Source of the DNA: a virus | DNA: 49,926 nucleotides | Strand: one strand, 5' to 3' | UHGV virus genome: UHGV-1353897 | In this document: positions 10,060 through 49,926 of the stretch, one piece after another | Position numbering within the stretch: position 1 is the first letter of the stretch | How the letters are laid out: the number at the start of each line of letters is the position of its first letter | Notes under the pieces: generated by a model | Told to the model about the DNA's origin: nothing | The model's database searches: none | Seen by the model: only the letters and a program-made list of their open reading frames with translations | Made by a program: the position numbers and the translations under genes

Positions 10060-10172
10060 ATTTGATTGAGTTTGTTCTGAAGTCGTTCGCCTTTGGTCTG
10101 ATAGCATGTGGGATGATTACAGCTATGCTTCTCATCATAGCCCTGGTCATCCCCTTTAAGAGGAAACGCTGA
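10056..10172 (+). CDS. small hydrophobic peptide (38 aa)
   Basis: ATG overlaps stop of upstream gene (ATGA) with GAGGAAATT just upstream; single predicted TM helix; below ORF-track length cutoff. Confidence 0.3.
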   Translation: MNLIEFVLKSFAFGLIACGMITAMLLIIALVIPFKRKR

Positions 10173-10384
10173 TGGAATGTTCATGCGGAGGACAGGGCAC
10201 AAGTGCTTACCTGCCATTCACCACTGTGAAGGAAGCCGAAGCCGCCGGATTTGCCGTAAGCAAGGCTCCCTGTGTAATCGCCACGAAGGATTGCCCGTGC
10301 TGTAAGAGGCACTCTCAGGACGTCTTCTACGCCCCTGATGCGCGTCCGGCTACGGTCAACCTACTCTCACTGATGAGGAAGTGA
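10172..10384 (+). CDS. small Cys-rich protein
   Basis: 70 aa with CxC and CPCC clusters; start overlaps stop of preceding mini-ORF (TGATG). Confidence 0.4.
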   Translation: MECSCGGQGTSAYLPFTTVKEAEAAGFAVSKAPCVIATKDCPCCKRHSQDVFYAPDARPATVNLLSLMRK

Positions 10385-42798: not shown

Positions 42799-42966
42799 TT
42801 ACTTTTTCTTCAGCTCGTCCAGTTTGGCTTCGATCTGGTCCAGAATCTCTTTGCCTTTCTGAACAATCACTTCACCATCTTGCGCGTGTTTACGGAAGAC
42901 CAGAGCACCAGCGATGAAGCCGACAACCGCGCCAGGAAGCGCATAAACCAGCAGATCTTGTAACAT
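42799..42966 (-). CDS. small membrane protein (55 aa)
   Basis: Not in ORF track (under 60 aa); GAGGA SD 8 nt upstream of ATG; single TM helix then charged helix (MLQDLLVYALPGAVVGFIAGALVF...). Confidence 0.4.
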   Translation of the reverse strand: MLQDLLVYALPGAVVGFIAGALVFRKHAQDGEVIVQKGKEILDQIEAKLDELKKK

Positions 42967-43076
42967 GATAATATCCTCGCTTTATAGGCGAGGATATTTA
43001 TATCAGCGTTTCAAGAGTGCCATGAGGTTGACGCTGCTGGACTTCGACTTGTCCTCAACCTTGCGCACAGGCATCT

Positions 43077-44237
43077 TCAGGTTCGTACATACCTCGGATG
43101 GTTCCCAGCGCGACCCTTTTGCAGGTGCCAGATATGCAGAGGAACACCAGTCTCAAAGAACACAGGCATCTTCCACTTCTGGACGCCTGGAACGTGCCCT
43201 GCAGGAGCCTTTTCGCACAACAGGGTATCTGGTAGCCAGAGCGAACGGGCTTCCCAGAGCGCTGCGCAGGAGTATTCAGGCCAGACGCGTTCCATGTAGT
43301 CTATCTCATCCCAGGTACGCTCTGCGTCCCACCCGATGTAACGGGTATTCTTCAGTCGGAAGAATTTCTTCAGCCAACAAGCACCGGAGGTTTCAAAGTT
43401 CAGGCGGTTGATGAACGTCAGGTGCCCGAACTCAGCCACACAATCTTGGAACGCCTGCTCAAGGTCGGCCTCAAGGATGTCACACTCTTCATCCGTGATA
43501 GGACAACCGTTGATCTTTTTCTTCCCGTGTTTAGTCACCCAATCGTCACGGTTGGACAAGAACGCCGCTCCATTACGGTTGGACTCGCTTCCATCACGAT
43601 CACGCAACATGAAGCCAGGGACGTCAATGGTGTATTCGTTCCCGAAGACCATGTTCAGGGCTTCCAGGAAGTTCCAGGCGCTCAGGCGACCGAAGTATTT
43701 CCAGGACATCGCCGTGTCCCACAGCTGGGTGAATTGTTCTGTCTTATCGATACACACCAACATCCCACGGAAAGCGTCATATTGAGTACGGCCAGCCAGC
43801 CAGTCAATATAGGACTGAACACACGGAATCATCTTGGACTTGCGGTAGCGACAGTCGGTATCGAATCGCATGCGATCAAAGTTCAGATTATACCAATCAG
43901 AGAAGCGCTGCATCTCTTCCTTAGACTGAGGCGGCACAGGGAACTCACTGTAGATAGTCCACGGCCCGACAGCGTTATAGCAACAACCCCACAGGAATGC
44001 CATCCAGATCTTGCGCTCGACTTTCTGTTCGAGGCTGATACCTTCAGTGACTTCAATCGCATAGTCCATCAGACGCATCTGCTGGTTGTGCTCTTCTGTG
44101 TAGGACAGCGCCTCCACCCAAGCCTTGAGCAAGTACATGCGATTCTCAGGCTTGCGATAATCAACAGCCAGGTCAATCGGGTACTTCCATTCAGTCGGAG
44201 GCGTATAGCCCGTCGGCATTTTAGATAGATGCGTCAT
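43077..44237 (-). CDS. hypothetical protein (Trp/Cys-rich, 386 aa)
   Basis: Long ORF with protein-like composition; no motif recognised. Confidence 0.55.
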   Translation of the reverse strand: MTHLSKMPTGYTPPTEWKYPIDLAVDYRKPENRMYLLKAWVEALSYTEEHNQQMRLMDYAIEVTEGISLEQKVERKIWMAFLWGCCYNAVGPWTIYSEFPVPPQSKEEMQRFSDWYNLNFDRMRFDTDCRYRKSKMIPCVQSYIDWLAGRTQYDAFRGMLVCIDKTEQFTQLWDTAMSWKYFGRLSAWNFLEALNMVFGNEYTIDVPGFMLRDRDGSESNRNGAAFLSNRDDWVTKHGKKKINGCPITDEECDILEADLEQAFQDCVAEFGHLTFINRLNFETSGACWLKKFFRLKNTRYIGWDAERTWDEIDYMERVWPEYSCAALWEARSLWLPDTLLCEKAPAGHVPGVQKWKMPVFFETGVPLHIWHLQKGRAGNHPRYVRT

Positions 44238-44577
44238 CTTTCGCTTCCTCTTCAGGAGCCAGCTGAATATCTTCCGGCTTCACGAACCCCATCGGACGTT
44301 CCCACATATCGACAAAGCGACGGTCAGCGGTCACGAACCACAGACGGGCTGCGGTGTGGGTCTTACTCGAGATGAACATCTGAGCGTTCGTCTGGGTACG
44401 GAACGGAGCAGCCTGCAACCACTTGCCAAAGTCTTTGGACGACGGATTGGCATTCAGCTGGAACTGAGGGATGACGCAGTTCTTTTCAGGAATCAGACGC
44501 ACAGCCGTAATGTGCTTGGCGTTTCCGGTGTAGTCAATTGCGACAGCCACAGCATCGCGAGGGATTTGAATTTTCAT
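44221..44577 (-). CDS. hypothetical protein
   Basis: ORF track 44221..44712; ATG at 44577 gives ATGA overlap with upstream membrane-protein gene. Confidence 0.4.
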   Translation of the reverse strand: MKIQIPRDAVAVAIDYTGNAKHITAVRLIPEKNCVIPQFQLNANPSSKDFGKWLQAAPFRTQTNAQMFISSKTHTAARLWFVTADRRFVDMWERPMGFVKPEDIQLAPEEEAKDDASI

Positions 44578-44777
44578 TTTGGTTCCTTGAATATTTTGTA
44601 ACCAGCAGCGCCGATAGACATCACCGCGCCAATACAGTACATCACAGTCACGTTCAACTTCTCTGAGGTTGTTAAGTCCAGAGGGGTGAAATGATAGGCT
44701 AGGGCAGTACACATTGAAACGGCTGCCATAACCAGACCAATGAACAACAGATAATTAGACAACCGTTTCATGATCAC
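44574..44777 (-). CDS. small membrane protein
   Basis: 67 aa with two TM helices. Confidence 0.4.
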   Translation of the reverse strand: MIMKRLSNYLLFIGLVMAAVSMCTALAYHFTPLDLTTSEKLNVTVMYCIGAVMSIGAAGYKIFKEPK

Positions 44778-46369
44778 CCCTTCTTCATCAGGTCAAGGAG
44801 AGAGCGCGACGCTGCCTTCGTTGCTTCTGGCTGGGCGCTCGCCTTGGTTTTAGTTTTGGATGCCTTCTGTGGCTTCTCAGGGACTCTGTGTGCCAAAGGG
44901 TTGCTACCTCTTATCTTGCGCAGCATGGGATACTGCTCGCAATATTTATGGAATTCATCTTTTGAAAGATTAAGCCCAACAAAGTCAATAACAAAGTCAC
45001 CGATAACCGCCAACGGGGCGTCAAAATATTTCAGGATGTTCCAGCCGACGGCCTTCACACCGTTTCCATTAGCAGCCTTGGCAATGAAGAGTTCATGATT
45101 GGAATCCGGTTCCAGCTCATACCCAATAGCAGAATATTCGCCCATGATCTTGACATGATCCTTGGTGTATTGATCGTTTCGTCCCCAGCCAGTGTCCTTC
45201 GCCGCCTTACCAGAACGACCGATGATACGCTTGTCGTAATCTTCCCGTGCCTGATAGATGAATGAGATGAATGCCATGTTGTTGAACCCCAAGTCCTGGT
45301 GTACGAACTTAGGACGCCACCGATGGCTCTGCATCATAGGTTCCCCTTCCAATATGATGGTAGAATCCTTGTATTTCCCTTTGATGTATTTCACCAATGA
45401 ATTGGCCATCTCAGAAGTCTTGAGAGTGGAGTGGATGAAGTCCATGGAAGTCCAAGAAGCCAGATCTGATTTGTTGGACACTGTATACTTGCCGATGAAC
45501 ACCAGATTGATTTCCTTGAACCAAAACCCAACCTGGATCATCTTCTTGTCGAATTCGTATTCTATGAGTTCTGGCTCATATTTGGTTCTCAACCACTCAA
45601 GGAATTGAACGACACGAGTCCCCTTTCCCGTTCCACTTGTCCCGCGAATAACGACAATACCCGGCGTCACGCTAGAATTTATCATAGTCATAAAACGTTT
45701 GTCCTCTTTGGGAATCCAACCATCTTTAAACATGGCGATCATATTACGAAAGACGCTCTCATCGCCCTTTAGATTACGATACTCTGTGTCCAGTAGTTTA
45801 GAATACCACAATCCGATAGATTTGTAACCACATCCTCGTTTTGGCATACAGGTAGGATTCACAGTACCGCCGTTGTTCACCCATCTATCATAGATCCTAC
45901 GGGCGTCCTTCCAAACCCACCAATAACCATTTGAAACCATGAATGGGTAGGGAGAATTACCCCTGTTCTCCTTTATTGATTTTATTACACGTTCCCGGTA
46001 TTCTGGATCATCCCAAGGATTTATACCAGATTTGTATTTCTTGCCAGTCCTAGCCAACGCCGCCTTAAATTGGTTTGGTATGATAGAATTGTCTCCTCCC
46101 AATTTCAGGTTCAGGCATAATGGGTCCAACAGTAACTCTTCCGTAACAATAATAGACTCCAGGTCGGATGCCTCCAACCTGGTTTCAAACTTTTCTATTA
46201 TCGTCTTTAAGAATTCAGAAGCGGGGTGAGATTCCAACAACCTTTTGATGATAACACCAGAACCCATATAGGGGTCTTGTTCGGGGGTGCATGAACAAGA
46301 CCGAATCCCGACGTAGAATCTCCCAGTTGGGACATGAGTTATCCTATATGTGTAATGGTAGCGAGCCAT
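44774..46369 (-). CDS. GIY-YIG-like N-terminal domain fused to P-loop NTPase-like domain
   Basis: N-terminus YHYTYRITHVPTGRFYVGIRSC..YMGSG resembles GIY-YIG nuclease motif; central Walker A GTSGTGKGT; 531 aa continuous ORF. Confidence 0.5.
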   Translation of the reverse strand: MARYHYTYRITHVPTGRFYVGIRSCSCTPEQDPYMGSGVIIKRLLESHPASEFLKTIIEKFETRLEASDLESIIVTEELLLDPLCLNLKLGGDNSIIPNQFKAALARTGKKYKSGINPWDDPEYRERVIKSIKENRGNSPYPFMVSNGYWWVWKDARRIYDRWVNNGGTVNPTCMPKRGCGYKSIGLWYSKLLDTEYRNLKGDESVFRNMIAMFKDGWIPKEDKRFMTMINSSVTPGIVVIRGTSGTGKGTRVVQFLEWLRTKYEPELIEYEFDKKMIQVGFWFKEINLVFIGKYTVSNKSDLASWTSMDFIHSTLKTSEMANSLVKYIKGKYKDSTIILEGEPMMQSHRWRPKFVHQDLGFNNMAFISFIYQAREDYDKRIIGRSGKAAKDTGWGRNDQYTKDHVKIMGEYSAIGYELEPDSNHELFIAKAANGNGVKAVGWNILKYFDAPLAVIGDFVIDFVGLNLSKDEFHKYCEQYPMLRKIRGSNPLAHRVPEKPQKASKTKTKASAQPEATKAASRSLLDLMKKG

Positions 46370-46674
46370 TACACAGCATCCTCAATACGCCAGCTCACGC
46401 CGCCCAGCCAAGGTGCCCAGAACACAGCAACCTGCGGACGACCGTTTTCTTCAAACTTAACTTTATACTGGTCGTCGAAGTTATAGAAGATTTCATCCGA
46501 TTCAGAGCGCTGGCCGATCTTCACCAGTACATCATGAAGAGCCTTGGCTGCGCCGATAGGAGTCGGAGTCTCCTGCTGGCGAATGAAGTTGTTCACATGG
46601 TTAATCACGCCATCCATGTCGCTATCACCGGAACGCTTGTCGGGGATTTCCCCGAACTTATTCTGATCTTGCAC
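46369..46674 (-). CDS. hypothetical protein
   Basis: 101-aa ORF. Confidence 0.45.
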   Translation of the reverse strand: MQDQNKFGEIPDKRSGDSDMDGVINHVNNFIRQQETPTPIGAAKALHDVLVKIGQRSESDEIFYNFDDQYKVKFEENGRPQVAVFWAPWLGGVSWRIEDAV

Positions 46675-46683
46675 GATGTCCTC

Positions 46684-47463
46684 CTATCGGACGTATTGAT
46701 AATGACTAATCAGGCGGTTCACCACTTCGACAATATTGCGGTTCAGGAAGTCGAAGTGATTCTGACCTTCTACTGGTTTAATATAAAGCATGTCTTCCGA
46801 ATTCGAAAGATCCAGTTTTTCATAATTACCCTGAGGAACAAAGATGACAAAGATGTTGTTCAGACCACACGGCTCGACATACTTCGGATTGTCATCAATC
46901 AGGACATCGCCAGCCAGCAGATGCTTTTCGTCGGTGCTGACAAACCCGTTGAAGATACCAGGGAACTTATCATAGACAAACTGACGCTTGCTGCGCTCGT
47001 GTTCCGGCTCGCACTTCGACACCGCGATGAATTCAACATTGTCGAAATCTTCAAGCAAGATATCCTTCAGATTTACCAGGAACTCGTAAGCACCGGGGAG
47101 CGGGTTCATCTTGGCGTACAAGTCAGGGCGACGCCACCAATCCATAGGATCGTTACCGCTTGGCACACGTTGTTTGTGCATCCCCAATTGGACTTCATGG
47201 TATAGCCACGCCGGATGCGCACGTTCACGCATCAGAATAGCCAGGTCGCCAGCATGGGACATATAACACTCTTTGGTAATCGGCTGGAACTGGTATGACT
47301 TATGTTCCCCCGTAGCGATAGCAGCGGCGGCGATGTTCTCTTCGTTGAACCACTGCACCCAAGGGGAGAGGCTGTCGACCAACGTCAGGTCAACATCCAC
47401 GAGGACGCGATACAGACCACCGACCTTTGATTTCATATCATAGATACAAACCAGGTTGTTCAT
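46684..47463 (-). CDS. HAD-superfamily 5'(3')-deoxyribonucleotidase-like protein
   Basis: HAD motif I DVDLT near N-terminus and motif IV LIDDNP near C-terminus; 259 aa. Confidence 0.55.
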   Translation of the reverse strand: MNNLVCIYDMKSKVGGLYRVLVDVDLTLVDSLSPWVQWFNEENIAAAAIATGEHKSYQFQPITKECYMSHAGDLAILMRERAHPAWLYHEVQLGMHKQRVPSGNDPMDWWRRPDLYAKMNPLPGAYEFLVNLKDILLEDFDNVEFIAVSKCEPEHERSKRQFVYDKFPGIFNGFVSTDEKHLLAGDVLIDDNPKYVEPCGLNNIFVIFVPQGNYEKLDLSNSEDMLYIKPVEGQNHFDFLNRNIVEVVNRLISHYQYVR

Positions 47464-47810
47464 TTGTCTTCCTCAACTTTATCGTAGCCTGTAGCAACAC
47501 ACTGTTCTTCGGTACAATCTGCATACAGAACGACGGAGGCCTGCTTCACGTAGGTGATGCAGTGGTAAGTTTCGTCTTCCTGGACGGAATCGTCATAGTT
47601 GCAGACAGTTTGGAGCGGACCCGGAGTAGTGTTGTCCAGTGCTGCATGCGCCTTGATGGTGTCTTCCATCTTGGACACGGCCTGCTCATTGGTGAACGTC
47701 GGCGCGTCAAGGTCTACAGTAGATGCAACGTCCAGAAGGGTGGAACACGCAGTGGTAGAGAAAGCCAGAGCGCACACCAGAAGAATCTTATTGAGTTTCA
47801 TTTCAATCAC
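47460..47810 (-). CDS. secreted protein / putative lipoprotein
   Basis: N-terminal signal peptide MKLNKILLVCALAFSTTAC with lipobox-like TTAC; several Cys; promoter cassette 20 nt upstream. Confidence 0.5.
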   Translation of the reverse strand: MIEMKLNKILLVCALAFSTTACSTLLDVASTVDLDAPTFTNEQAVSKMEDTIKAHAALDNTTPGPLQTVCNYDDSVQEDETYHCITYVKQASVVLYADCTEEQCVATGYDKVEEDK

Positions 47811-47830
47811 CTGTTTGTCAAAGGGTTAAC

Positions 47831-47862
47831 AGGGGGAATTATATCCCCCTTTGGTTTATTGA
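47831..47862 (-). promoter_or_regulatory. promoter cassette (TTCAATAAA box + hairpin-embedded -10)
   Basis: Minus strand TTCAATAAA, 11 nt, TATAAT in loop of GGGGGA/TCCCCC stem; between DNA polymerase stop and lipoprotein gene. Confidence 0.45.
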
Positions 47863-47863
47863 A

Positions 47864-49792
47864 TCAACCTTTCTTCTTTTGCATCATGGCAAGAAGGTTC
47901 ACACGGCGCTTGTGTGACCAGCCGACCACGTCGAGGATAGACTGAATCGGATCAATGAAGGACTTCTCAAAGGCCGCCTGATAATCCACCCATTTGCCCA
48001 GACCAAGCTCCTCAGGGAAGAACTCAGGATATGCGAAGTAATTCTGGCCGAATGGGTTGCCTGGCTTCAACAACACCATCTGTACCTTATCACCCGACTC
48101 GATCATCGGTAGACCCAGATCTTCGTTCTTCTCAACCAGACGGTTGTAGCCCACACACGCCTTGGCAGCAAAATGAGCACCAGAGATGAACGATCCGTCA
48201 GCAGCCACACACTTCTCTATGTCGGACACGCCGGAAGCCTTGGCGATATCGTCTACAGAGAGTTTCATGTACTCCTCTTTGTACTGGGAGATGAGCGTCT
48301 GTACTTCCTCTTCGGTGCCGAGTAGGATCTTCTCATAACACTTGACAAGACGCTCACGACACCATTCCGGCGTGGTGGACTTGCGGGCTTCCAGACCTTT
48401 GAACTTAATCTTCGGCTTCTCGTACTTGATACCCTCACTGTCGTACACGGCCATGGCATACATCTTCTTGGCTCGCCAGACAGCGGCTGACGCAATGACC
48501 TCACGCTCCCATACCATGCGCTGTTCAAATCCGTTCATGGTGTTACACAGAAGCTGTGCCCACTCATTGGTCTTCGGCTGGTAGTTGTCTTTGATCCATT
48601 GGTCGATATTATCAACCATAGCATGATGGTCAGTAACATCAGGCCACAACTGCTTGACAAGACGCTCAATGCAGATGTAGTTGGAGTCGGTATCCCCTGC
48701 GATGACGAAGTCCTGGCCTGTTGTACCACACAGCTTGTTCAGATAGTCATCAGTGTAACGCTTGTTCCACTTGTTGATCAGCTGACCGGATGTGGTGATG
48801 GCTTCGGCAATGTTGAGGTTGAAGTACTCTTTGAACCAGACGTTTGAGATCGCGCCATAACCTGCGTTCATCAAGATCTTCAGACCTTGCTGTAGGGTGT
48901 CTTGAGCAACGCCCAGATCTTCCCACTTCTTCATCACTTCGGTCAGGGCATCAAGATCAATGTTCTTGTGCTCTTCATACCACTCTGGGTCATAGTAGCG
49001 AGACTTCATGGCAGACTCAAGATGGAAGTCGCCCTTCGACATCTCTTTACACCAGCCAGCCCACTGCTCATACTTCAGACCCTTGGCCTTCTCTACTTTA
49101 CGGTCGCTGTAGATACCACGCATGATTTCAGACAGGAACGACATCTTCTCGTTGCTGAAGAATTGAACGTTCGGCGTGAACGACACGTTGTAGCGGCGCA
49201 GGGTTTCAAAGTGGAACTCACCCAGGGCAACCAACTCATCAACAACCTGCAGGCGTTCGTCAATCGCACGCAACAGCTTGTCGTGAAGGGCTTTCATCAA
49301 CCGACGTTTGTGCATCGGCGTTGCCATGTTATTCATCTGAGCAGCCAGCTCTTCACACATAGCCTCAATAATCTCGCGGCGCTGGTGTTTGTCGCCAACG
49401 ATAGTCTCTGGACCGAGGTTGTACTGCTGAATGATGTGAGGATACAGGGAGTTCAAATCTTCCGAGAAGACCCAGAAGTAGATTCCTGGTGTCACATCCA
49501 TGACGTATGCACCCTCAAAGTCGGTCGGACCATCGTATACACGCTGGATCTTAGGCACTATCCCCTTCTCATACAGACGATAGTAGCACATGGCCAGCCA
49601 CGGAGACACAGTGCCCAGACCGTCTTCATAGTTGGACTTGGTGCGGTACGCAAGGACGAACATCAGCTGGAGCAGGCGCAGCTTCTGTTCAAGTCGCCAT
49701 ACCAGCTTAACGTCTTTGATACCATATCGGGTGTGTTTGCAGTAGTCGTTGAAGTACAGATCAAAGAGCGACTTGCTCTCACTGTAGTCCAT
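47864..49792 (-). CDS. 43: family-B DNA polymerase, polymerase domains only (T4 gp43 C-terminal part)
   Basis: Pol B motif A DLNSLYPHII, motif B KILMNAGYG, motif C VIAGDTDS, KKMY motif; collinear with T4 gp43 from about residue 320 onward; no 3'-5' exonuclease domain in this ORF. Confidence 0.9.
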   Translation of the reverse strand: MDYSESKSLFDLYFNDYCKHTRYGIKDVKLVWRLEQKLRLLQLMFVLAYRTKSNYEDGLGTVSPWLAMCYYRLYEKGIVPKIQRVYDGPTDFEGAYVMDVTPGIYFWVFSEDLNSLYPHIIQQYNLGPETIVGDKHQRREIIEAMCEELAAQMNNMATPMHKRRLMKALHDKLLRAIDERLQVVDELVALGEFHFETLRRYNVSFTPNVQFFSNEKMSFLSEIMRGIYSDRKVEKAKGLKYEQWAGWCKEMSKGDFHLESAMKSRYYDPEWYEEHKNIDLDALTEVMKKWEDLGVAQDTLQQGLKILMNAGYGAISNVWFKEYFNLNIAEAITTSGQLINKWNKRYTDDYLNKLCGTTGQDFVIAGDTDSNYICIERLVKQLWPDVTDHHAMVDNIDQWIKDNYQPKTNEWAQLLCNTMNGFEQRMVWEREVIASAAVWRAKKMYAMAVYDSEGIKYEKPKIKFKGLEARKSTTPEWCRERLVKCYEKILLGTEEEVQTLISQYKEEYMKLSVDDIAKASGVSDIEKCVAADGSFISGAHFAAKACVGYNRLVEKNEDLGLPMIESGDKVQMVLLKPGNPFGQNYFAYPEFFPEELGLGKWVDYQAAFEKSFIDPIQSILDVVGWSHKRRVNLLAMMQKKKG

Positions 49793-49926
49793 CTTCTTCA
49801 GTACCGTACATTACAGTTTTGCCAGATTTGGATTGAGCGATAATTTCGATTGCCATGATGTATTTCCTTCTCTTCAGTATTGTTGTTTGTTCGTACTACA
49901 ATTAGAAGTATACGCCAGTTATTGAA

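Follow-up and report, generated by a model that had tools for sequence, protein, structure and literature searches.

Gene content of the locus

The window analysed here is the whole 49,926-nt stretch of the virus genome UHGV-1353897. At 44774–46369 on its minus strand lies an open reading frame (ORF) of 531 aa plus stop, which joins what appears to be a Seg-type GIY-YIG homing endonuclease in frame with a 5-hydroxymethyl-dU (5-hmdU) DNA kinase. The assignment came from the ORF list and from Pfam and PHROG matches, and the coordinates were checked by translation. A preliminary description had reported a single ORF of this length here, which was borne out on the minus strand; the plus-strand translation of the same interval is riddled with stops. 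The protein begins with MARYHYTYRITHVPTGRFYVGIRSCSCTPEQDPYMGSGV. Its GIY-YIG-like N-terminus and its Walker A loop (GTSGTGKGT, aa 243–251, window 45617–45643) were confirmed to share one frame, and both signals were far above chance. The loop lies ~205 residues past the YMGSG motif, not ~270 residues downstream as first described.

The GC content of the ORF is 45.6%, compared with 49.6% for the window. Its ATG overlaps the stop of the upstream DUF7254 gene (TAATG). This gene (46369–46674, minus strand) was assigned from PF23912, the start context and the identity profile, and its 3' end forms the left-hand boundary of the cassette described below. The last 20 kb of the window are 96–98% identical to Escherichia phages PC3/PH4, ZQ1, AV101, and A221, of which ZQ1 and AV101 are recorded as Ackermannviridae, Aglimvirinae. 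The genome is that of a ViI-like Ackermannviridae phage and not of T4, and the preliminary description was right that the protein is not a standard T4 core protein. The gene order (DNA polymerase, DUF7292, NT5C-like, DUF7254, fused ORF, small membrane genes, amino-acid:DNA transferase (ADDT, also AADT)) is that of ViI, in which YP_004327565 (gp243) fills the kinase position and YP_004327568 (gp247) the ADDT position.

The C-terminal half is a 5-hmdU DNA kinase domain

The kinase domain (HMUD2; aa 236–486, 44912–45664, minus strand) contains the Walker A loop and was assigned from its Pfam match, its identity to ViI gp243, its conserved positions and its low ratio of nonsynonymous to synonymous substitution rates (dN/dS). 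PF18747 (HMUD2, 5-hmdU DNA kinase 2) matched with 505.1 bits (E 7.7e-152, cut-off 25), and aa 236–530 span profile positions 2–298 of 298. The fused proteins and 45 unfused kinases have 63 kinase positions in common. The motifs kept include the Walker A residues G243, S245, G248, K249, G250, and T251 as well as SNKS298–301, SWTSMD305–310, EGEP341–344, and GRSGK384–388, and a single change, K to R242, is diagnostic of the fused clade. The structure model of this half was confident (predicted local distance difference test score (pLDDT) 75–92) and weakly resembles adenylate-kinase-like P-loop kinases; Foldseek with the full-length model returned weak matches of the same kind (best E 3e-3). Against the PDB, the fused-family profile produced only trivial P-loop matches (E>0.05), and by sequence no solved relative of either half came to light. 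An NCBIfam search gave no match.

ViI gp243 and gp67 move one phosphate from ATP onto 5-hmdU in DNA, and gp247 is a serine:DNA transferase on the route to 5-NeOmdU (Lee et al., PMC8989533). The corresponding partner in the window is the ADDT gene (43077–44237, minus strand), which matches PF18724 (E 5e-60) and is 90% identical to its orthologue ViI gp247, whose function is described in PMC8989533. It lies 537 nt downstream of the fused ORF on the same strand, and ADDT also adjoins the fused gene on the contigs of two metagenomic relatives, P0006 and P0004. Sequence and position thus strongly support the prediction that the C-terminal part is the 5-hmdU DNA kinase of the phage, the positional equivalent of ViI gp243.

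The N-terminal half resembles Seg-type homing endonucleases

The GIY-YIG catalytic core (aa 1–95, 46085–46369, minus strand) carries Y6, Y8, Y19, G21, R23, Y34, G36, E71, N87, G91, and G92. PHROG 314, 'homing endonuclease', matched aa 1–227 of the fused protein (E 2e-23), PADLOC HEase models matched the protein as well (E 9e-9), and tblastn retrieved the T4-type SegB, SegD, and SegH genes. Word-indexed searching with only the first 226 aa gave no matches although identical sequences exist; a full-length query and an exhaustive HMMER search of 1.84 billion representatives took its place. The latter detected 6256 homologues of the N-terminal half at E<=1e-3. These are mostly stand-alone proteins of 150–350 aa that align to aa 3–95, up to ~135 and occasionally to 178, and the best free-standing endonucleases matched with E 1e-20 to 1e-27. 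The suggestion of a homing-endonuclease-derived domain joined to a kinase is therefore supported on both sides, by PF18747 at 505 bits and by PHROG 314 at E 2e-23. Searching the halves separately, as had been proposed, gave a Pfam match for the kinase, while the N-terminus was recognized by PHROG and PADLOC but not by the Pfam GIY-YIG models.

Alignment of 65 homologues showed that Y8, Y19, G21, Y34, G36, E71, N87, G91, and G92 are invariant and that Y6, D32, S37, G38, and F53 are nearly so. The window protein keeps all of these residues, plus R23. Two conserved Tyr ~11 residues apart, followed by Gly, make up the GIY and YIG motifs, and E71 and N87 correspond to the catalytic Glu and the downstream Asn. 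The spacing of the latter two from the YIG Tyr is similar to that of E75 and N90 in I-TevI. The beta-beta-alpha-beta-alpha arrangement of the GIY-YIG fold was also found. Of the three catalytic residues that the preliminary description proposed to check, Tyr and Glu were thus invariant. For Arg the candidate is R23 (82% R and 15% H in the subfamily), which lies 4 residues past Y19 compared with ~10 for the I-TevI Arg.

The core is followed by a variable basic linker (aa 96–145, 45935–46084, minus strand), of which 4% is invariant among the fused proteins. It has low pLDDT and is partly matched by free-standing endonucleases to ~aa 135. A conserved junction domain (aa 146–235, 45665–45934, minus strand) then runs straight into the kinase. 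It is helical with low model confidence and is the most conserved part of the family, showing 52–56% identity at the deepest split against 36–39% for the core and the kinase. Pfam on aa 135–235 gave no match, and aa 146–235 alone matched four endonuclease PHROG families at their C-terminal ends (E 3e-5 to 2e-3). The idea that this domain is unique to the fusion, raised because single-sequence matches stop by ~aa 178, was dropped since by these PHROG profiles it resembles the C-terminal domains of other endonucleases. It is thus probably the C-terminal DNA-binding domain of the endonuclease, and we read aa 1–235 as a complete Seg-type endonuclease consisting of a catalytic core, a linker and a putative DNA-binding domain.

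The fusion is intact, widespread and of single origin

The fused frame is open in the window, in phages LIMEstone1 (ORF186, F-LimXI), ZQ1, CAU_YEP3, PMBT18, and KpS110, and in seven metagenomic proteins (P0001–P0007), with full-length identity down to 37–40%. No frameshift or stop was found among the phage and metagenomic copies examined; for P0003, called as 495 aa starting at M35, the check covered the DNA from that codon onward. The start codon varies, being ATG in the window, ZQ1, and CAU_YEP3 and GTG in LIMEstone1. The PMBT18 ORF lacks an ATG and probably starts at GTG, and its depositors annotated it from Met35. Annotation of this kind probably explains why PHROG 15209 is a 497-position profile that starts at residue 35.

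A fused-type kinase (>=80% aa identity) is present in 29 of the 351 kinase-bearing phage records; the remainder are <60% identical, with none in between. The fusion was found in Limestonevirus, in Aglimvirinae coliphages and their Enterobacter and Salmonella relatives, in PMBT18 and UTK0004, in Taipeivirus (KpS110), and in a Yersinia phage, and it is thus intact in ~29 phage genomes of five genus-level groups. All copies of this endonuclease lineage with >60% identity are fused to the kinase, and no free-standing copy was detected among 50,697 phage records. In a neighbour-joining tree of the kinase domain, all eight fused proteins formed one clade apart from every unfused kinase, indicating that the fusion arose once and then diversified. 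Independent, repeated fusions were also considered and are ruled out by this single clade.

Pairwise Nei-Gojobori estimates of dN/dS were 0.08–0.25 for the GIY-YIG core, 0.15–0.26 for the rest of the endonuclease part, and 0.04–0.12 for the kinase, with dS >1 in some comparisons. The identities of both domains, the intactness of their conserved residues, purifying selection on both halves and the single origin are accordingly demonstrated or strongly supported.

The fused group is itself mosaic. The window and ZQ1 are 99–100% identical through the endonuclease part (dS 0.015), whereas their kinase cores are 71–91% identical over much of their length (~44917–45547, minus strand; dS 0.67, dN 0.065). 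No record of the phage collection has a kinase domain >92% identical to that of the window.

Three alternative alleles and the boundaries of the cassette

The site directly after the DUF7254 gene holds three alternative arrangements. CBA120 and ViI have the kinase alone. Ag3, AV101, and Dickeya phage XF4 have a 228-aa SegD-like GIY-YIG endonuclease followed by a separate kinase, the two ORFs overlapping by 8 nt in different frames. The third arrangement is the in-frame fusion. The endonuclease of the split allele is 27–30% and its kinase ~50% identical to those of the window, which shows that the fusion is not a frameshifted form of the split allele. The survey of fused and split orthologues that had been proposed thus found the fusion in ~29 phages and different sequences in the split allele of their relatives. 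Alleles differ even within species-level groups, as between LIMEstone1 and XF4 and between PH4/ZQ1 and AV101/A221.

Identity profiles located the boundaries of the exchanged DNA. Compared with AV101, its closest split-allele relative, the window shows a divergent block at 44900–46369 (minus strand) that is 25–65% identical between flanks of 95–100%. Identity is low from 46369 to ~44900 and returns to ~100% over the final 126 nt of the ORF. LIMEstone1 and XF4 gave the same pattern. PMBT18 and CBA120 are 98–100% identical on both sides of the cassette, which in PMBT18 replaces the CBA120 (Kuttervirus) kinase; the PMBT18 kinase is almost identical to that of LIMEstone1 (dS 0.05). The right-hand boundary of the swapped block is the last ~126 nt (44774–44899) within the region that encodes a disordered K/S/A-rich tail ending in SRSLLDLMKKG (44774–44911, minus strand). 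This tail was delimited by the DNA identity profiles, by a pLDDT <50 with a terminal helix, and by a motif shared with the polymerase and the transferase. The 126 nt are 94–98% identical in phages whose remaining ORF gives no megablast match.

A divergent block that extends from the start of the ORF to ~126 nt before its stop is the pattern expected of a mobile cassette. The window kinase is 47% identical to ViI gp243 and the neighbouring transferase 90% to gp247, which is consistent with a foreign origin of the cassette. The distribution is sporadic with inheritance as a block: ~29 of 351 phages, five genus-level groups, polymorphism within species and sharp boundaries. Taken together, these data demonstrate or strongly support horizontal replacement of the resident kinase allele by the cassette in several Ackermannviridae genera.

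Neighbouring genes and a shared C-terminal peptide

The ADDT gene of the window has a 1-nt deletion at ~43113 relative to ZQ1, AV101, and ViI (AAAGGGT-CGCG). The deletion shifts the frame, replaces the last ~36 aa and removes a conserved C-terminal tail, giving 386 aa compared with 405–411; it may reflect either a genuine truncation or an error in the sequence. The DNA polymerase ORF (47864–49926, minus strand) comprises only the C-terminal 642 aa, and a stop at ~49811–49813 closes the frame before the window end. The polymerase gene is uninterrupted (~1000 aa) in AV101, ViI, and CBA120 and is split by intron or endonuclease insertions in ZQ1 and LIMEstone1. P0006 (537 aa) is encoded on Logan contig SRR10527393_947 (6001–10670), which is T4-like and differently organised (topoisomerase, NT5C, Alc-like ... 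clamp loader). There, ADDT comes directly after the fused gene, and behind it lie a 196-aa ORF and a second kinase (HMUDK_hel family); the resulting hypermodification cluster is compact and does not resemble that of ViI.

The C-terminus of the window kinase consists of a ~40-aa low-confidence K/S/A-rich linker and the peptide SRSLLDLMKKG. Similar tails were found at the end of the DNA polymerase ORF (RRVNLLAMMQKKKG, end region 47864–47910, minus strand), of the transferase of relatives (SVNLMALLKR) and of a 70-aa ORF (phrog_4789, 10172–10384, plus strand; TVNLLSLMRK). The common pattern is [VS][NS]L[LM]x[LM][ML]xK after a flexible linker, and none of the other six-frame window ORFs of >=60 aa has this ending. 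The tails co-vary within a phage: the P0004 contig has VNLLAMMQKKQ, NVLAALMGKKK, and VNIMNMLRGNK, and on the P0006 contig the two kinases and the transferase end in SLSGFFGN, NLNAFFS, and KSVFDI. In T4 and RB69, short hydrophobic peptides that bind the clamp and can replace one another sit on flexible linkers at the C-termini of the polymerase (gp43), gp33, and gp55 (PMC2988020). By analogy, SRSLLDLMKKG, VNLMALLKR, and VNLLAMMQKKKG are candidate clamp-binding peptides, which suggests that the hypermodification enzymes may dock on the phage sliding clamp. The clamp is not mentioned in PMC8989533, and the only full-text co-occurrence found was unrelated. That polymerase, kinase, and transferase have a co-varying tail in common suggests that replication and post-replicative base modification may be linked.

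A proposed homing cassette and its alternatives

We consider it likely that the ORF is a genuine, long-lived in-frame fusion of a Seg-type homing endonuclease and a 5-hmdU DNA kinase that constitutes a homing cassette. The kinase half would phosphorylate 5-hmdU in replicated phage DNA, and the downstream serine:DNA transferase would act on the resulting 5-PmdU as the pathway proceeds to 5-NeOmdU. In co-infected cells, the endonuclease half would cut the matching locus of relatives that carry another allele, with either no endonuclease or the SegD type. Since the kinase is ~47–51% identical in protein and ~25–65% in DNA to the other alleles, the nearest usable homology is the 3' end of DUF7254 and the 126-nt tail. 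Repair of the break would start from these two sequences and copy the whole endonuclease–kinase gene, which would explain why the block is so sharply bounded. Because the endonuclease is tied to a useful enzyme and its deletion risks damage to the kinase, it would be hard to lose.

Several points weigh against this explanation. On the N-terminal 233 aa of the window protein the Pfam GIY-YIG models stayed below threshold (best SegE_GIY-YIG, E 0.075). PF19835 gave 13.7 bits on the window protein against a cut-off of 25, so a curated PF01541/PF19835 match was not reached; the fused relative P0007 exceeded the threshold of PF19835 (SegE_GIY-YIG) with 28.9 bits. R23 is not securely assigned as the equivalent of the catalytic Arg of I-TevI, and the confidence of the structure model is low beyond aa 95. 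Cleavage of a target and homing by the endonuclease half are putative, and the full-length 60-kDa product and the activity of a kinase with a 235-aa N-terminal extension are likewise predicted. Ordinary recombination, acting between the conserved flanks, could also produce the mosaic pattern. Decay is the usual fate of selfish endonuclease genes, and a domesticated function would explain no less well why the junction domain is strongly conserved down to 40% identity.

Domestication is the main rival. The nuclease and DNA-binding part would then serve the kinase or the phage and no longer act in selfish homing, for example by targeting the kinase to DNA, by giving the nuclease access to nascent unhypermodified DNA, or by degrading unmodified host or competitor DNA. 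T4 EndoII, which is also a GIY-YIG enzyme, degrades cytosine DNA. That the fusion is old and its junction conserved speaks for domestication, but the distribution is sporadic and polymorphic within species, and since only ~29 of 351 kinase-bearing phages have the fusion, it is dispensable for this type of phage. Moreover, other phages carry a different free-standing Seg-like endonuclease at precisely this site, as expected of competing selfish elements, and the closest homologues are classical free-standing Seg endonucleases. We therefore assign domestication a low probability. Another question is whether the ORF functionally encodes two proteins, the stop codon of the endonuclease having been lost, the kinase being made mainly from an internal start with its own Shine-Dalgarno sequence, and the full-length product being minor or irrelevant. 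A candidate start region (45683–45706, minus strand), deduced from the sequence, comprises GAGG (45703–45706) and the ATG codons of M227 (45689–45691) and M229 (45683–45685). M229 is invariant in 8/8 fused proteins, GAGG lies 9–11 nt upstream of an ATG in three divergent fused lineages, unfused kinases begin just 3 residues before the first beta-strand, and the split allele of Ag3, XF4, and AV101 has overlapping yet separate genes. However, the GAGG bases encode conserved Asp/Glu codons and may thus reflect protein constraint only. Promoter and terminator scans around the fused ORF were at chance level and support no internal transcription unit; the sole T4-type late-promoter motif, TATAAATA, is located downstream of the ADDT gene. 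In addition, the in-frame state has been kept to 37–40% identity though a stop codon could easily re-evolve. An internal start at M227 or M229 may give free kinase as well, which is compatible with the homing cassette; that two separate functional proteins are the essential products is possible but doubtful.

The N-terminal extension could also be an inactive, tolerated remnant of an endonuclease gene that once inserted itself upstream of the kinase. Degeneration after fixation is common among homing endonuclease genes (PMC13405050), and some annotations start at M35 (PMBT18 and the PHROG 15209 profile). Against this, the GIY-YIG core has a dN/dS of 0.08–0.25 at dS values reaching >1, none of the subfamily-invariant residues has been lost, and the copies examined are free of frameshifts and stops. 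A ratio well below 1 rejects a decaying pseudogene, and we regard such a remnant as very improbable. Least credible of all is a sequencing or assembly frameshift that joined two genes artificially, a concern already raised in the preliminary description. The split arrangement in related phages and the 1-nt deletion in the neighbouring ADDT gene of the window speak for it, but the split-allele genes differ in sequence (27–30% and ~50% identity), and the same fused frame recurs in ~29 independently sequenced phages and 7 metagenomic clusters. The comparative data thus refute this artefact.

Beyond the homing cassette itself, the fusion might be adaptive, although we hold the following combined proposal to be rather unlikely. 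In a phage whose thymines become hypermodified and so resistant to many nucleases, fusion to the kinase, as the first enzyme of the modification pathway, would bring the homing endonuclease to 5-hmdU DNA while it is nascent; the nascent DNA behind the fork would offer the only moment at which the competitor's target site is still cleavable; and the polymerase-like C-terminal peptide of the kinase may bind the sliding clamp. If this were true, the cassette would be a 'modification-gene drive' that propagates itself, and the enzymes of thymidine hypermodification would collectively ride on the phage sliding clamp.

Comparison with known systems

LIMEstone1 ORF186 appeared in a 2012 listing under the name F-LimXI, as a SegB-like GIY-YIG endonuclease that stands free 'upstream of ORF187', with no mention of its kinase half (PMC3296691). 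GenBank labels of the same gene include 'homing endonuclease', 'endonuclease', 'P-loop nucleotide kinase2', 'phosphotransferase', and 'hypothetical', an inconsistent annotation that the present analysis corrects. A 2024 review of the Ackermannviridae mentions neither homing endonucleases nor the kinase, and full-text literature searches retrieved no description of this endonuclease–kinase architecture. Both domains belong to known families, and their stable, single-origin, horizontally moving fusion is an undescribed variant.

Phage homing endonuclease genes are normally separate, short-lived passengers. The fusion with a hypermodification enzyme has outlasted divergence to ~40% identity and transfer across at least five genus-level Ackermannviridae groups. 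It therefore provides a natural system for asking how a selfish nuclease stabilises itself by joining a useful gene, how homing enzymes cope with hypermodified target DNA, and how DNA-modification alleles swap among phages used for biocontrol or therapy (Dickeya, Salmonella, E. coli, Klebsiella).

The window protein shares with ViI gp243 (YP_004327565) the PF18747 family, the position after DUF7254 and upstream of the gp247 orthologue, the Walker A, EGEP, GRSGK, and SWTSMD motifs and the C-terminal tail. However, gp243 has 304 aa without an N-terminal extension, whereas the window kinase belongs to a clade of fused proteins only. The free-standing SegB, SegD, and SegH of T4-like phages are separate proteins of 150–350 aa with their own stop, whereas the window frame runs on into the downstream gene; its cleavage activity is putative. 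The split allele of Ag3, AV101, and XF4 is alike in its insertion site between DUF7254 and the kinase, in the conserved 3' tail, and in size (228+305 aa compared with 531 aa). It differs in that its endonuclease is 27–30% identical with a different C-terminal domain and its 305-aa kinase is of the ordinary type; in XF4 the first 36 nt of this kinase are identical to those of the endonuclease-less CBA120.

Fusions of the 5-hmdU DNA kinase (5-HMUDK) have been described in metaviromes, namely with a PLP decarboxylase, and with a decarboxylase plus aGPT-Pplase2, and SP10 gp186 carries a C-terminal domain (PMC8989533). That paper does not contain the word 'homing' and mentions no endonuclease partner of 5-HMUDK. 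Like the window protein, these fusions show that the kinase domain tolerates fusion, but their partners are enzymes of the same pathway. Inteins and intron-encoded endonucleases differ in another way, since the window nuclease is an N-terminal extension without a recognisable splicing device: Pfam on the fused protein detected HMUD2 only and no Hint/intein domain, and Rfam on 42900–49926 gave no match of any kind at E<=0.1, including group I introns. What the window fusion shares with them is the principle that a selfish nuclease is attached to a useful gene, which protects it from loss.

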